Part shown: positions 16,759-57,395 of the stretch, piece after piece
Layout of the letters: every line of letters starts with the position of its first letter
How positions within the stretch are numbered: the first letter of the stretch is position 1
Origin: an uncultured Oscillospiraceae bacterium
GTDB taxonomy: Bacteria > Bacillota > Clostridia > Oscillospirales > Oscillospiraceae
Length of the DNA: 64,000 nucleotides
Direction: 5' to 3'
Assembly: GCA_947629775.1 (NCBI GenBank)
Contig: CANRFA010000003.1
Span: 48,098-112,097 of the forward strand
Program-made: the position numbers and the translations under genes
The notes under the pieces: model-generated
The model's database searches: none
The model's input: only the letters and a program-made list of their open reading frames with translations
Told to the model about the DNA's origin: nothing

Positions 16759-16787
16759 AGTATAGCTTCGAATTGGCAATTTGTCAA
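16759..16787 (-). promoter_or_regulatory. Promoter with box A operator overlapping the -35
   Basis: TTGACA-N17-TATACT; TTGGCAATTTGTCAA at 16773-16787; perfect TTGGCATTTTGCCAA at 16829-16843. Confidence 0.7.
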
Positions 16788-33839: not shown

Positions 33840-33981
33840 TGTTTCCCCTTTCTGAACCCTGAGTGTGAATCCGCCCCAGTTCCGTTTGATGCCATGATTA
33901 TAGCTCTGAATGGGCAATCTGTCAACCCCGGATGATAAAAAGATGAACTTTTTTATCGGAAATATCCTCCGGGCGCTAACT

Positions 33982-45559: not shown

Positions 45560-46297
45560 TCAATCCTCCAGGGTGATACCCAGGTCAGAGGCCAGGCTCC
45601 ACACATGATCGATTACGGCGAGGGAATACATATCCGGGTGTTTCAGGGCACGGCGAATGGGCCCGGCCACGTCCCGATCCGGGTGTCCGCTGCCCGTGTA
45701 CCTGCACTGACACTTGTCGATAGGCCAGTGACAGGCAGGGCAGATGTCCGGTTTGATAATCCGGTCTCCGTTCCCACGCTCCCCGATGGGTCCCCTGGCG
45801 CAGGGGTACATCTCATAACACCGTCCCGTATAGCCACACATGGGCACCAGCAGCCCCCGAAACTCCGGGCAGGCATCCTCAATAAGGTCGCACATGCGCT
45901 GGACAGCCTGGCGGGTCTCCGGCGCAGCGGTGGAGCACAAACGCTTATTGGCTACGATAAGCAGGCTTTCCCCGTTTAGATCCCAGATCATGTCCACCGG
46001 GGCATCCTGGGGGGCTTTATTCCGGTCATACTCGTCCTGTCGGTCATTCCGCTGGGATTTCACGTACGGCTGGGCGTGTACGTGGCGTGTGAGGTGACCG
46101 GAAAGCCAGTAGGGGATCCCCTCAAACAGGACCGAAAATCTCAGGTAGCGGATAGGGGAGTGACGGGCCATCAGGATCCGGCGCTTCCACTCCATGTCCG
46201 GTGGATTCACGGGGTGCTTGCCAATCGTCACCAAGGCCCGGCGCTTAACCTCCATCCACTCCCGTTCTCCGGGATACTCCAACAGTTCCACATTCAT
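45560..46297 (-). CDS. thyX: ThyX-like flavin-dependent thymidylate synthase
   Basis: RHSPIR, HLTRH-x8-SQR (variant of RHRx7SxR) and KRLC. Confidence 0.72.
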   Translation of the reverse strand: MNVELLEYPGEREWMEVKRRALVTIGKHPVNPPDMEWKRRILMARHSPIRYLRFSVLFEGIPYWLSGHLTRHVHAQPYVKSQRNDRQDEYDRNKAPQDAPVDMIWDLNGESLLIVANKRLCSTAAPETRQAVQRMCDLIEDACPEFRGLLVPMCGYTGRCYEMYPCARGPIGERGNGDRIIKPDICPACHWPIDKCQCRYTGSGHPDRDVAGPIRRALKHPDMYSLAVIDHVWSLASDLGITLED

Positions 46298-50002: not shown

Positions 50003-50364
50003 CCGGGATTCTCCTTTTCATTCCAGCTCAGGCGCACAGCTCGATCGTCCCAGTATTCGTCCGCTCCAACCTTGCGACAGTCTGATCCGAAATACGCTAT
50101 GCGCCAGGCCGGGTTCTCGTTGACTGCCTCGAACTCCAACCCCCAGCTTTGGCAGGCCTCCACGGCCTCCTCCAGCAGATCCCCCTCCCTGCACGTCCAC
50201 AGGACCAGGCAGCTCCCAGCCCGCTGCTCGGCCAGCGCCCTGCGGATGACCGGCCAGTTGGGAGGCCCAACCTCCGGAAACTGCTCCCGGCACAGACACC
50301 CGTCAAAATCAATCGCAATCACCCGTCTCAATCCGTCCATTCCGCCTTTGATGCCTTCGGTCAT
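49999..50364 (-). CDS. HAD-superfamily hydrolase (phage type)
   Basis: IAIDFDGCL, LWTCR and KVGADEYWDD. Confidence 0.75.
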   Translation of the reverse strand: MTEGIKGGMDGLRRVIAIDFDGCLCREQFPEVGPPNWPVIRRALAEQRAGSCLVLWTCREGDLLEEAVEACQSWGLEFEAVNENPAWRIAYFGSDCRKVGADEYWDDRAVRLSWNEKENPG

Positions 50365-51092
50365 TTCTTCCCTCTCCCCTGCTGGTCGTCAAAACAGTAG
50401 GCGTATCCATCCGGCCAGTAGGGATCCGCTACACGCCCCTTGCACCTCCTGCTGATGGATGTGCTGGATGCGTAATTCGCCTTGGCTGCCTCCTTGATCG
50501 AAGGATACCTGGCTACCACGTTATGATCCCTGTCCATCTTCCGCACCGGCCTCCTCCAGGCATTCTTCTTTATCACCGGAGCTGCCTGCGCTTTTGGCCC
50601 TCTCTTTTCCTCGTCGTAGGTGAAGGTGTATCCACTGGGCCAAAAAGGGTCTACAACCTGACCTTTGCATTTCCTCCATACATTGGAAGCTGAAATGCCG
50701 TTGGCGTCCGCAGCTGCCTGAATGGATTTATAGAAGGCGAGGATGTTCCCTTCCCGATCGACTTTCCTCACGGCCCGCCTGTGTCTGTTCATCCATCTGC
50801 ATGGAGTGTTCAGCGGGATCAGCTCCAGGTTCCGCAAGGAGTTGTCGGTGCAGTCCTCGCTCCGGTGTATGATCTTGTAGCCCGGCTTCCGTCCGCCCAG
50901 GTAGGCGTCCGCCATCAGCCCGGCCACGGTCACTCTTACGCTCCCCTTATTGGGCAGCAGCAGATTGACAACCGCCCGCCCGGAATAGACGTGCTGTCCC
51001 AGCGGGATCCACACACCGTCCACCTGTTTCTCCACAGTTCCGGCTGTACTGATCCGGTAAGGAATCCGGTAGCCCGGGATCATTCTGTACAT
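50361..51092 (-). CDS. NUMOD4/HNH-like protein with two NUMOD1-like repeats
   Basis: YRISTAG, HRSEDCTDNSLRNL, FYKSIQAAA and YPSIKEAA. Confidence 0.68.
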   Translation of the reverse strand: MYRMIPGYRIPYRISTAGTVEKQVDGVWIPLGQHVYSGRAVVNLLLPNKGSVRVTVAGLMADAYLGGRKPGYKIIHRSEDCTDNSLRNLELIPLNTPCRWMNRHRRAVRKVDREGNILAFYKSIQAAADANGISASNVWRKCKGQVVDPFWPSGYTFTYDEEKRGPKAQAAPVIKKNAWRRPVRKMDRDHNVVARYPSIKEAAKANYASSTSISRRCKGRVADPYWPDGYAYCFDDQQGRGKK

Positions 51093-51964
51093 TCCGGGGC
51101 CTCCTGAACGAAGGCAAACCACGTTCCGTCCCTGAACGGCTTGGGCTGTGGCAGCTTCGCCCTTTCCGCAATCTCCCTGATCGAATGGTGGGAATCTCTC
51201 CCGGCCTCCGTCAGAGTCCTGTAGACCCTGAGCAGATTCCCGTCCCTGTCGTACTTCGCCACCGGCCTGCAATGTTTCTCCCGGCTTGCCTCCCGTACCT
51301 CGTCTTTTGATGCGAGGCGGAGATTGACCAGTCTGCAGTCTTTCGGATCCCCGTTGATGGGCCAGGCCTGAAACCCTGCCGGGATCTCGCCCCTGTAAGC
51401 CTGATAGATCAGGTTCCTCACCGCAACAGGGCTGGATCGCCCGCTGGAGTCCTGAATGCAGACATACTCGACCGGCGATTCAGACCTCGTAAACCTGTTC
51501 TTGCGCTCCCAGTTCCCTTCCTTATATACCTCCACCTCTCCAGCTTCGTTTACCCTGACGGGATACCTGGTCCCCTGAAGTATATTCCACCCAGGTTCGT
51601 TATCATCTGGAAAAGTGATGTTCACCAGTCTGTGCCTGCGCAGGCCATTGATATGGCCCAGCTCCTGAAAGGTCATGATCTTCAGGTTCTCCAGGCGGTC
51701 GTCCGTTTTGTCCCCGTTCAGGTGAACCGCTACGCACCCTCTGGGGATTCTGCCAAGAAAGGCGGTTGCCACCAGCGAAGATACCGATTTTGCGATCTTC
51801 TCTCCTCCATTGGTATACAGGTGGACGTGCCTGCGCCCCTTGCTGAGATAGTACCGGGCCTGACTCCACTCACCATCTGCCAGCTGTTCCACGTCTCCGG
51901 CGCTGCTTACACGGATGGGAATCCGGAGTCCGTCAATCTGTCTCCATCTGATCTGCATATACAA
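51080..51964 (-). CDS. Double NUMOD4/HNH-like unit plus NUMOD1
   Basis: HLNGDKTDDRLENL, PINGDPKDCRLVNL and YRTLTEAG. Confidence 0.7.
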   Translation of the reverse strand: MYMQIRWRQIDGLRIPIRVSSAGDVEQLADGEWSQARYYLSKGRRHVHLYTNGGEKIAKSVSSLVATAFLGRIPRGCVAVHLNGDKTDDRLENLKIMTFQELGHINGLRRHRLVNITFPDDNEPGWNILQGTRYPVRVNEAGEVEVYKEGNWERKNRFTRSESPVEYVCIQDSSGRSSPVAVRNLIYQAYRGEIPAGFQAWPINGDPKDCRLVNLRLASKDEVREASREKHCRPVAKYDRDGNLLRVYRTLTEAGRDSHHSIREIAERAKLPQPKPFRDGTWFAFVQEAPECTE

Positions 51965-52439
51965 ATCGCTTCCCTTTCAATGATGTGCGCCATTTCCCAG
52001 CGCACCAGCCTGACACGCTTCTTTCATGAACCCCGTAGGCCCTGGCAGCGGATCGGACGGACTCAAACCGCTCTATCGTTCCATCCTCGCTGCACACGCA
52101 CACCGGCCTGGTTGGCCTCCTCCGCCCGCCCGTCCGCCCACACTCGGCGGATACCGCAAACCTGAGATTGCAAAGCCTCTGATCCTCCTTGTTCCCATTG
52201 ACGTGCAGGACATAAGTGGCAGGAGGGATCTTCCCAATGAATCCCTCCATCACCAGCCTGCCACATGGAACAGAAACGCTTTTCCCCCGCTTACCCTTCA
52301 GGGATACGCAAGCCCCTCCGTTTCTGTCCCTGTGGACGGCGGGCCTGCTCCAGGCCCCGTTGATATACCGCTCAATCACACCATCCGCATTCACCCGCAC
52401 CGGATAGGCAAACCGGTTAATCTGCCTCCACGGATCCAA
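51933..52439 (-). CDS. NUMOD4/HNH-like protein plus NUMOD1
   Basis: HVNGNKEDQRLCNL and FESVRSAA; start uncertain. Confidence 0.62.
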   Translation of the reverse strand: MDPWRQINRFAYPVRVNADGVIERYINGAWSRPAVHRDRNGGACVSLKGKRGKSVSVPCGRLVMEGFIGKIPPATYVLHVNGNKEDQRLCNLRFAVSAECGRTGGRRRPTRPVCVCSEDGTIERFESVRSAARAYGVHERSVSGWCAGKWRTSLKGKRFVYADQMETD

Positions 52440-52453
52440 AGCTGCCCGCCCCC

Positions 52454-52609
52454 CTACGCATTGACGAGCAGTCTGTCTGCTTCGAGCAGCTCTACAATCC
52501 GCAGGCAAAGTTCCATGCCAGCCTTCAGGCCCGGACTCAGATTGTGCTGGACCAGCCATGGCTCCACCGCATCCTGATAGATCGCCTGCATAAGGGTGAT
52601 ATCAGACAT
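52454..52609 (-). CDS. Small protein, paralogue of 53194-53382
   Basis: Manual translation ..IYQDAVEPWLVQH..ELCLRIVELLE. Confidence 0.58.
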   Translation of the reverse strand: MSDITLMQAIYQDAVEPWLVQHNLSPGLKAGMELCLRIVELLEADRLLVNA

Positions 52610-53540: not shown

Positions 53541-53618
53541 AACCCCGTTCTCCTTTCATCGTTGCCGTTGGCAATCTGCCAACATCGATACCTGGCTCCC
53601 CTCGCCGGGGACAAGTGT

Positions 53619-53647
53619 ATTCTACATCTGATTTGGCAAGCTGTCAA
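53619..53647 (-). promoter_or_regulatory. Promoter with two box A operators
   Basis: TTGACA-N17-TAGAAT; TTGGCAAGCTGTCAA over the -35 and TTGGCAATCTGCCAA at 53568-53582. Confidence 0.72.
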
Positions 53648-53752
53648 CGCTGATTTAGAACTTTCTTCAACTTTTTTCAGAATCTTTCCGTCTGGCGATA
53701 AGTCCCGGTGCAAACGAAAAGCCCGCCCTGACAACCAGAGCGGGCAGTCTGC

Positions 53753-54505
53753 TCAGATATCAAGTTCCATCAGGACGGGGCAGCCGTACACAGCAACGGC
53801 CCCTTCCAGCACCTCCACACTGACGATCCGGGAGGCCAGCGCCTCCGTCACATAGAAGGAGGAGAACCGAAAGCCAAAGTCCTTCTCCTTCATGACCCTG
53901 GTCTTCCAGTAGGTGTAGGCCTTCCCGTGAGGGTGCGTGTACCGGTAGGCATCGACATAGCCCTGCCCCAGCAGGTCCCTCAGCTTCTCCCTCTCCTCCG
54001 GGAGGTATCCGGGTTGCCTGGCGCAGTACCTGGGATCCTCCAGATCGTCATCCTCCAGGCACACCAGCATGGCCCCGCCCATGATCACCGGCTTCTTCCT
54101 CTGCAGGGCAGCTGCGTAATCGTTCAGCTTCGCCATCCAGCGCAGCTTGTCCAGCACCTTGCCCAGCGCCCCGCTGGGGGTGGAGAAGTTCACCAGGTAA
54201 AACTCCTCATACTCCAGGGTCGTGACCCTTACCGTATCCGGCTTCTTCTCCGTCCCCATCCCGTACTGTACGGACAGAGGGGCCTCCCTGACCAGCGTAA
54301 CGGTGTTGCGATACGTACACAGCTCCTCGTCATTTACGTTCCAGTACTGGAGATAGCCATCCCCCAGGAGCTTTTCGGACCTCTCCCGCTTCAGCTTAGG
54401 CTTCTGGAAGAATACGGCGTCGAAGTCCCCCCTGGTGAATACCTCCAGCTCCCCACGCTTCTTCCTGGCGTTCAGCCCGCTCAGGTCCCACGTCATCAGC
54501 TTCAT
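53753..54505 (-). CDS. Exonuclease III/AP endonuclease homologue with degenerate catalytic motifs
   Basis: Overall Xth pattern (..SVQYG, RVTTLEY, GYVDAYRYTHP..YTYW) with the active-site motifs altered. Confidence 0.75.
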   Translation of the reverse strand: MKLMTWDLSGLNARKKRGELEVFTRGDFDAVFFQKPKLKRERSEKLLGDGYLQYWNVNDEELCTYRNTVTLVREAPLSVQYGMGTEKKPDTVRVTTLEYEEFYLVNFSTPSGALGKVLDKLRWMAKLNDYAAALQRKKPVIMGGAMLVCLEDDDLEDPRYCARQPGYLPEEREKLRDLLGQGYVDAYRYTHPHGKAYTYWKTRVMKEKDFGFRFSSFYVTEALASRIVSVEVLEGAVAVYGCPVLMELDI

Positions 54506-54546
54506 GCCTGTTCATCTCTCCTTCACCCACGTGGATGGATACCAGC

Positions 54547-54575
54547 ATGATACTACTGAATTGCCAGTTTGTCAA
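54547..54575 (-). promoter_or_regulatory. Promoter with a box A variant over the -35
   Basis: TTGACA-N17-TATCAT; TTGCCAGTTTGTCAA. Confidence 0.6.
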
Positions 54576-55955: not shown

Positions 55956-57041
55956 CTAATCGTATGGCAGGAAGTCTTTGCCGTAGATGTCATTCATCCA
56001 GTCAAAGACCTTCGCCATGCCGTATCCGCCCTTGCTGGGACCCCAGATCTCCTTGGGGTTCCAGCTGCCTGCAGGGGCAGCGGGATCGTAGTCCGGGTTG
56101 GGCGTGAACTCCCCACCGCTCATGCAGTATTCGTACTGGTGCGGGTGGGTGCGCTTCAGCTGCTGGAACCGGCTTTCTCCCTTGCCTATGTGGGCTCCGA
56201 AGGCGCAGAAGATACAGCCCGTTCGCTGGCACCCGGTACAGTGGTGCTTGCCCTTGGCGTCCGTCTCAATCTCCCCGTAGACGGAGCAGATGGGCAGCTG
56301 ATTCCTGCGGATGTACTCCAATACATCCTGATTCGTCCAGAAGCTCATGGGCCTGCTGGCCTCGTTCCCCTTCGTGAAGGCGTTGCAGCCGGTCTGGACC
56401 CATGAGGTTCTCCTGCGCAGACTCTCCTCCGCCATCGTCGCCAGGATGACTTTCCGGCCCGTCTCCTTCTGATACACATGCTGCGGGTTCTTCTTGCTCA
56501 GATCGCAGCACCTGTCGGAGAAACGGACGGGCAGATCGTACATGGGCCTCCACCTCTTGGCGTCCAGAGCGCTGAATCCTCCATCCCTGCGCAGAAACGT
56601 GCCTTCCAGCCTCTGCATCCGGGTGCTGTGCGGGTTCCGCCTGGCCCCCTGCAATACGTCGCAGACCTGCTTGGAGACCACTGGGTATCCATGGGTGGAG
56701 AGAATATCCCGAAAGGTTACCAGGTTGCCCGGAGTTTTCCCAAAGCGGTTCCGCCCCCACCTGGGCCGGATTTCGGTCACGTTCTCATGGGAAAGGGCGA
56801 ATCGCCTCACTTCCGGAAACTCCAGCCCCGTGTTGATGAATACCGCCGGAATCCCGGGAAACATCTTCCTGGCGATATCCAGCAGCACCGTACTGTCCTT
56901 GCCACCGCTGAAGCTGACGTACACCTGCCCATCGTAGTGTTTGTACCACTCGATAAGACGGGTCTGTGTGATCATGATTTTGCGCTCCAGTGGCAGCTTC
57001 TGCAACTCCTTTAATCTGTTCTGGTCATGAACTCCATCCAT
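55956..57041 (-). CDS. PAPS/APS-reductase family protein
   Basis: SFSGGKDS, NTGLE, RCC and RTGCIFC. Confidence 0.85.
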   Translation of the reverse strand: MDGVHDQNRLKELQKLPLERKIMITQTRLIEWYKHYDGQVYVSFSGGKDSTVLLDIARKMFPGIPAVFINTGLEFPEVRRFALSHENVTEIRPRWGRNRFGKTPGNLVTFRDILSTHGYPVVSKQVCDVLQGARRNPHSTRMQRLEGTFLRRDGGFSALDAKRWRPMYDLPVRFSDRCCDLSKKNPQHVYQKETGRKVILATMAEESLRRRTSWVQTGCNAFTKGNEASRPMSFWTNQDVLEYIRRNQLPICSVYGEIETDAKGKHHCTGCQRTGCIFCAFGAHIGKGESRFQQLKRTHPHQYEYCMSGGEFTPNPDYDPAAPAGSWNPKEIWGPSKGGYGMAKVFDWMNDIYGKDFLPYD

Positions 57042-57395
57042 CCTGTAAACCTCCTCAGCTTCATATGGTAATTGACATAAAGAGTCCCCCGTGCTATACT
57101 CTCTGGCGGATGGAGCTTGCCTGGGAAGGTGCAAGACAGTCTGAAGGGCACAGAGCTTTGCGACAGCTCTGTGCCCTTAATTTTTTCTCAGAAAGTTGAA
57201 AAAAAGACTTGCTTTCCGGGCAGGTCTATGGTATCTTTAAGGAGCACTAGAAAAGTGCGGCCATCCCCGCTCTAGGGGGGCCGGGAACTCTCCAGCCCGG
57301 CCCCCTTTTACTCCTCTTTACAGTTAAGAATCCTGCACCCAGAGAGTGATGCGGTCCGTATCCGGGCCAAATCCTCTATGCGGTGCAGGATTTCG

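Follow-up and report, generated by a model that had tools for sequence, protein, structure and literature searches.

The locus described here raises the question of whether a gene that retains the full length of exonuclease III (ExoIII), while the catalytic residues of the enzyme are all replaced, is a decaying copy or encodes a protein kept for another purpose and, in the latter case, what that purpose might be. The gene occupies positions 53753..54505 on the minus strand of the window, i.e., the whole stretch of 64,000 nucleotides that was analyzed and that corresponds to positions 48098-112097 of contig C3 (167,982 bp) in a 3.07-Mb draft genome. It encodes 250 amino acids plus stop, and its product is referred to as P0001 in the following. 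An earlier note on this DNA had assigned positions 53753-54575, which is exactly the open reading frame plus its promoter, to an ExoIII pseudo-enzyme that had been repurposed.

Full-length homology of P0001 to the ExoIII/Xth family of AP endonucleases is evident from alignments with solved enzymes of this family, which run end to end, from residue 1 to 248-250. When phmmer was run against PDB, the protein matched H. pylori XthA (8igi; E 9.7e-42, residues 1-248) and B. subtilis ExoA (5cfe; E 6.3e-32), to which it is 33-40% identical, and the PDB search also retrieved human APE1 (E about 1e-24), a plant ARP and the chains of Pseudomonas Crc (E 2.5e-12). The PHROG family 19169, annotated as 'endonuclease', matches at 2.6e-25, and the Pfam profile PF03372 (Exo_endo_phos) reaches an E value of 0.03, which is below the cutoff. 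Structure prediction, proposed earlier as a check, yielded an AlphaFold2 model (65 sequences in the alignment; pLDDT 89.2, pTM 0.90) with the four-layer alpha/beta-sandwich of the EEP fold, which Foldseek superimposed on both 8igi and 5cfe with a TM score of 0.94 and on APE1-DNA complexes with about 0.93; such predictions, here and for the second protein introduced below, lean on alignments of canonical enzymes. By descent, P0001 belongs to the ExoIII/ExoA branch and more precisely to the Clostridia-type ExoA proteins. It is not closer to Crc than to the active enzymes (2.5e-12 for Crc vs. 1e-32 to 1e-41 for ExoA/XthA), and owing to this independent origin it is not a member of the Crc family.

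The coding frame is supported by composition. GC3 (0.84) and the codon-usage score (0.334) both lie above those of all neighboring genes, and the chance of an open frame of 250 codons at this composition is about 8e-5. A further open reading frame of 207 amino acids on the opposite strand (53927-54550, plus strand) scores lower in codon usage than the real frame and is a by-product of the high GC3 of the gene.

The motif replacements listed in the earlier note are all present in P0001, namely WDLSG (residues 6-10), FQKPK (33-37), NFSTP (106-110), GAML (144-147), RFSS (213-216) and YGCP (240-243). Conservation of the catalytic columns was taken from an alignment of P0001 with 205 homologues, where these nine columns are 96-100% conserved, with N111 at about 75%. 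P0001 differs at every one of them (N7D, E35K, Y108S, N111S, D145A, N147L, D215S, D240Y and H241G). Among columns conserved to at least 95%, P0001 retains 18 of the 22 non-catalytic ones but none of the eight catalytic ones (p 8.5e-5 in Fisher's test), and the four non-catalytic columns that have changed all adjoin catalytic motifs; the claim that scaffold and full length are kept thus agrees with the alignment. Loss of catalytic residues in an otherwise preserved scaffold is far from the pattern of random divergence. In the numbering of human APE1 (using a sequence identical to PDB 1e9n), all ten catalytic and metal-binding positions (N68, D70, E96, Y171, N174, D210, N212, D283, D308 and H309) are replaced. 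The metal-binding positions E96, D70, N68 and D308 read K35, S9, D7 and Y240 in P0001, the catalytic Asp-His pair D283-H309 reads S215 and G241, and D210, N212, Y171 and N174, by which water and phosphate are positioned, read A145, L147, S108 and S111. P0001 is therefore devoid of the residues for EEP-type phosphodiester hydrolysis and, since it fails to show the defining catalytic features of the family, should not be filed as an exodeoxyribonuclease.

The surroundings of the gene differ in composition from the remainder of the contig. The GC content of contig C3 is 0.62-0.67 before about 64 kb (about 15.9 kb of the window), drops to 0.53-0.58 there and remains at the lower level as far as the contig extends. 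The low-GC stretch encodes tail-fibre, holin and endolysin proteins, a PAPS-reductase-like protein, an HD hydrolase, three HNH endonucleases, a dUTPase, a ThyX-like protein, a DNA methyltransferase, an amidoligase, a ParB-like/methyltransferase protein and the large terminase, with a serine integrase at its far end. Based on the GC drop and this gene content, the stretch is a temperate prophage of about 104 kb, within which the gene for P0001 is flanked on one side by the lysis/PAPS-reductase block and on the other by the nucleotide-metabolism block. The host genome carries a separate, canonical exoA on contig C1, the product of which is 35% identical to P0001. PADLOC returned no match for the gene or its neighbors.

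Several of the other prophage genes deserve mention in their own right. Three consecutive and partly overlapping HNH/homing-endonuclease-like open reading frames (303, 294 and 208 amino acids; 50361-52559, minus strand) lie between a phosphoheptose-isomerase-like gene and the HD hydrolase gene and are absent from the related phage contig described below. The large terminase (623 amino acids; G000:C3:148848-150719, outside the window) spreads residues 2-617 over about 460 positions of PHROG 979, which points to an insertion of about 150 amino acids that extends from CVEMNTPVLMGDG to near ...LINKNC and looks intein-like. The combination of the PAPS-reductase-like protein (392 amino acids; 55956-57134, minus strand), the ParB-like/methyltransferase-like protein (469 amino acids; G000:C3:151110-152519), the amidoligase and the DNA methyltransferase could be a sign that the phage DNA is modified.

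A catalytic-site screen of the 205 retrieved homologues flagged a second protein, P0150 (268 amino acids), that is 28% identical to P0001 and encoded on L016, a 14-kb phage contig. Both proteins pair in a maximum-likelihood tree with an SH-aLRT support of 97, or 96 when the 12 catalytic-site columns are left out. As both branches are long (2.2 and 3.8 substitutions per site vs. a median of 0.69), the orthology is backed by separate evidence, i.e., by synteny and by shared rare residues. Eight genes of L016 are collinear with their counterparts in the window, in the order endolysin C-terminus (56% identity), ExoIII-like protein (28%), HD hydrolase (54%), dUTPase (57%), three unnamed genes (31, 47 and 34%) and ThyX-like protein (64%), such that divergence is greatest for the ExoIII-like pair, while its neighbors share 31-64% identity and five of them 47-64%. 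Residues that occur in less than 10% of the family and are common to P0001 and P0150 number 17, whereas the average for other homologues is 3.4 (sd 3.0). They include S9 and K35 in the former metal site, G143, L150, D152, Y167, M205 and D209 as well as Y160-C161 in the former Asn ladder, and most of them are located in loops of the former DNA-binding/active-site face.

The ThyX-like gene at the end of the collinear block (45560-46297, minus strand, 244 amino acids) has no match among PHROG families and, of the Thy1 profile in Pfam, covers the final quarter only (positions 138-191 of 191, E 2e-10); its counterpart on L016 is annotated as Thy1. The gene in the window may be a divergent or partly degenerate thyX.

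P0150 resembles P0001 in its catalytic state. It carries the changes N7S, E35K, Y108F, N111S, D145N, N147Q and D215N, its SDH motif is gone, and it likewise retains none of the eight catalytic and 18 of the 22 scaffold columns (p 8.5e-5). The exchange of E96 of the metal site for lysine (K35) is common to both proteins. The model of P0150 is of similar quality (pLDDT 89.1, pTM 0.90). Inactive state, intact frame and preserved scaffold are therefore found together in the orthologue (n=1). Since P0150 is also dead with its scaffold kept, and since an open frame would be improbable for a neutral sequence at this divergence (about 8e-5 per copy), selection has preserved the fold, and catalysis was lost before the two phages split. 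The proposal that the pseudo-enzyme is a maintained protein and not a decaying copy has gained from P0150, in which no catalytic position is intact and the exchange of glutamate for lysine recurs, and the question raised earlier of whether the substitutions are conserved in orthologues can be answered in the affirmative for the sole, syntenic orthologue found. With one orthologue known, the comparison provides solid grounds to classify P0001 as a maintained pseudo-enzyme and not as a pseudogene.

Further relatives were sought in several collections. Word-indexed searches of 5.8e9 proteins yielded no further orthologue with either P0001, for which the next match was 37% identical and all matches were canonical, or P0150. 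A HMMER search of 1.8e9 representatives returned P0150 as the sole orthologue among the best 150 of 2,982 matches. IMG/VR was scanned with P0001, with a neighboring protein of 156 amino acids and with the alignment of P0001 and P0150, in each case with no match, and a scan of the collection of genome contigs gave no further orthologue. Two hundred genomes of the host family contained no second ExoIII copy save a truncated canonical fragment in one of them (G126), 160 loci from IMG/VR and metagenomes anchored on the neighboring HD gene contained no ExoIII-like gene, and a search with the HD family revealed no phage closer than L016. Apart from that, four small ENA metagenome contigs encode identical copies of P0001, the only ones in the collections searched; these contigs are about 100% identical to the window and show four differences, all outside the gene in question. 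The nearest sequences apart from these are canonical exoA genes, present in single copy in the host's own family, with at most 37% identity. Three sets of candidates were set aside: P0075 and P0121, which have many of the rare residues in common with P0001 but are canonical and reside in unrelated non-phage contexts, ExoIII matches from GenBank phages, which are canonical and mostly located in host-flank DNA (e.g., phiD12), and structural neighbors in BFVD, which comprise giant-virus AP endonucleases only. Separately, five homologues among the best 150 representatives listed (P0082, P0074, P0141, P0124 and P0123) show four to five changes at the nine catalytic positions and do not group with P0001; they may represent ExoIII-fold proteins that degenerated independently. 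A description of a phage-encoded dead ExoIII was not found in a limited search of the literature.

With respect to its expression, the gene is equipped with all elements of a transcription unit. A Shine-Dalgarno sequence read from the DNA (GAAGGAGAG; 54516..54524, minus strand) is located 10 nt upstream of the ATG and is preceded by a sigma-70-type promoter, TTGACA-17-TATCAT (54547..54575, minus strand; 11 of 12 matches), which has an AT-rich GAAAAAGGTT element upstream that is common to other prophage promoters. An intrinsic terminator (53721..53745, minus strand) with an 11-bp stem containing eight GC pairs, followed by TTTTCGTTTG, begins 8 nt past the stop codon. The next promoter, TTGACA-17-TAGAAT (53619..53647, minus strand), restarts transcription of the downstream genes for proteins of 52 and 66 amino acids and the HD hydrolase, which makes the gene for P0001 an insulated single-gene unit. 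The same order of terminator (1221-1251), promoter (1358-1386), gene (1433-2239), terminator (2248-2272) and next promoter (2318) is present on L016, such that the arrangement of a moron-like autonomous phage cassette, with its own promoter and its own terminator, is found in both phages.

The gene had been described as having its own box A promoter, and this holds true: a box-A-like palindrome (TTGCCAGTTTGTCAA; 54561..54575) that agrees with TTGGCA-N3-TGCCAA at 13 of 15 positions covers the -35 hexamer and part of the spacer, and we infer that it is a candidate operator. Box A overlaps the -35/spacer region at four strong promoters, at 16773-16787, 33911-33925, 53633-53647 and 54561-54575 (promoters at 16787, 33925, 53647 and 54575), as compared with 0.01 expected, and the consensus occurs upstream of many prophage promoters (15 matches vs. 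2.9 expected). In view of these occurrences, the gene appears to be part of a phage regulon, and the position of box A over the -35 hexamer suggests regulated and not constitutive expression. The leader that follows the 53647 promoter contains a perfect copy of box A (TTGGCAATCTGCCAA) at 53568-53582, and at the other cassette promoters (16-34 kb) box A is located about 60 bp upstream; the two placements suggest that one DNA-binding protein exerts control in two ways. A blastn-short comparison with the window revealed no copy of the long 'expression cassette' of the prophage in the region upstream of the gene, which shares with that cassette just the promoter core, the AT-rich upstream element and half-sites of box A.

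What, then, might a dead ExoIII do for a phage? Our preferred, although tentative, reading is that P0001 is a non-cutting binder of the DNA backbone or of DNA lesions. According to this proposal, a dead ExoIII-fold protein would be under selection in a lineage of large temperate Clostridia phages, would be transcribed by the host RNA polymerase from a promoter that carries an operator, probably soon after induction or infection, and would bind rather than cut via the remodeled face of the former active site, where K35 takes the place of the Mg2+-binding glutamate and where the shared rare residues mostly cluster. The likeliest ligand would be the DNA phosphate backbone at a nick, a gap, a 3' end or a lesion. 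P0001 might then act as a natural substrate trap or dominant-negative AP endonuclease, comparable to the APE1 E96Q/D210N mutant made in the laboratory, with the effect that DNA intermediates of phage or host would be covered from host base-excision repair or from a glycosylase-type defense.

A DNA or phosphate ligand is suggested by the fact that equivalents of APE1 Y128, R156, R181, R281 and W267 are kept in both proteins, by K35, and by the basic residues R14 and K15, which are common to both copies and lie in the first DNA-contact helix; in addition, the gene heads a module of nucleotide and DNA metabolism with HD hydrolase, HNH endonucleases, dUTPase and the ThyX-like gene. Binding without cutting is plausible as APE1 E96Q/D210N is catalytically dead while still binding AP substrates (PMC9474862), and a dominant-negative APE1 has been reported (McNeill and Wilson, 2007, as cited in PMC9474862). 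The same two positions as in this APE1 variant (e.g., PDB 5dfj) are neutralized in both dead proteins, the equivalent of D210 being alanine in P0001 (D145A) and asparagine in P0150 (D145N). In P0001, however, eight further active-site residues are lost and the abasic-sugar pocket and Asn ladder are remodeled, such that retained binding of AP sites is not to be assumed.

The pocket formed by F266, W280 and L282 in APE1 is made up of Y/F/F in one of the two dead proteins and of T/S/R in the second, the equivalents of the phosphate-contacting Asn ladder (N222, N226 and N229) are replaced, the equivalent of G127 is threonine or arginine in the dead pair, and the insertion loop containing M270 and M271 is one residue shorter. 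P0150 is moreover acidic (pI 5.1) and keeps four of eight basic DNA-face positions. Variable pocket, replaced ladder, loop deletion and the acidity of P0150 would all speak against a DNA binder, and the fact that the pair evolves fastest among the eight shared genes would also fit a protein-protein interface. The most specific version of the idea, in which the dead AP endonuclease clamps abasic sites, nicks and 3' ends uncut and blocks host base-excision processing or glycosylase defense from breaking the possibly modified phage DNA, appears rather unlikely. Glycosylase-based antiviral defense that creates abasic sites exists (PMC11078745) and would offer a plausible target for a DNA shield. 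As neither pocket nor Asn ladder is conserved, the classical AP-site shield put forward in the earlier note is not backed by conservation, though some of the backbone-binding basic residues remain.

The same observations lend weight to an alternative in which the dead fold serves as an adaptor or decoy that binds a host or phage protein, such as a repair enzyme, a defense sensor or an RNA chaperone, while lacking any affinity of its own for nucleic acids. Such a role is nearly as likely as DNA binding in view of the non-conserved pocket and Asn ladder and the acidic P0150. Its precedent is Crc (PDB 4jg3, 4f1r), a pseudo-enzyme of ExoIII fold that acts by binding, as is proposed for P0001, that has neither nuclease nor nucleic-acid-binding activity and works only with Hfq (PMC3662782), and the chains of which are among the matches to P0001; a pair with 28% identity that has diverged most among eight syntenic genes is typical of arms-race interfaces. 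Crc differs from P0001 in several respects. Of the four core catalytic residues, D220 and H246 are retained in Crc (PMC3662782), whereas P0001 retains none of the four and more of the basic DNA face, and Crc is chromosomal and Hfq-dependent, acting in complex with Hfq on A-rich RNA, whereas P0001 is phage-encoded. Unlike in Crc, basic residues on the DNA face are kept or gained in the dead proteins (R93, K/R116, R213, K35, R14 and K15). Furthermore, no conserved partner gene adjoins, the adjacent small open reading frames differing between the two phages and matching no family, and P0001 descends from Clostridia-type ExoA and not from Crc.

A role for a small phosphorylated ligand, be it a nucleotide, a signaling nucleotide or a precursor of a modified base, with P0001 serving as a sponge or performing non-EEP chemistry via Cys161/Cys242, serine and lysine, seems improbable. 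The new C161, which is common to both copies, does adjoin the retained C242, a lysine occupies the metal site, and the HD hydrolase, dUTPase and ThyX-like genes of nucleotide metabolism are close by. The pocket residues beyond K35, S9 and S111, on the other hand, differ between the two copies, known sponge, defense and anti-defense families in PADLOC gave no match, and we found no precedent for such a role in this branch of the fold. Binding of a cyclic-nucleotide-like signal had been suggested from the sequence at the outset; nothing was found specifically in its support. Least probable is that P0001 is a relic of a captured host exoA that has lost its function and is drifting, with its frame open by chance or under very weak constraint, a view that the very long branches, the existence of just two known members with no close relatives and the additional 207-aa frame in the GC-rich sequence might favor but that is at odds with two independently evolving copies that are intact over their full length and keep 18 of 22 scaffold positions at 28% identity, the low probability of an open frame in each copy, the strongest GC3 and codon-usage signal of the neighborhood, promoter, Shine-Dalgarno site and terminator conserved in both phages, and confidently predicted folds for both proteins.

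For the annotation of such genes, the comparison has a practical consequence. PF03372 rejects both dead proteins, and the NCBIfam xth equivalog TIGR00633 accepts both (148.9 bits for P0001 and 108.6 bits for P0150 vs. a cutoff of 99.05), so that PGAP-style annotation would mislabel them as active exodeoxyribonuclease III; automatic annotation will call both of them active enzymes. P0001 shares fold and length with the ExoIII/ExoA enzymes represented by 8igi, 5cfe and TIGR00633, but lacks all ten catalytic and metal-binding residues and several DNA-contact residues, and differs from them in being phage-borne, in having its own promoter-terminator unit and in evolving fast.

The dead phage ExoIII thus adds to the known pseudo-enzymes of the EEP fold, and it constitutes a clean case of a phage having turned a repair nuclease into a non-catalytic protein, with fold, position and transcription unit kept at 28% identity. 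Should P0001 bind to lesions in DNA or to a repair or defense factor of the host, it would be an ExoIII-derived addition to the counter-defense and host-takeover repertoire of phages, and if the DNA shield were true, it would represent a new class of proteins that derive from a repair enzyme and act in anti-defense or DNA shielding. As glycosylase-based defenses that create abasic sites are only now being described, an ExoIII-derived member of the counter-defense repertoire would be timely.
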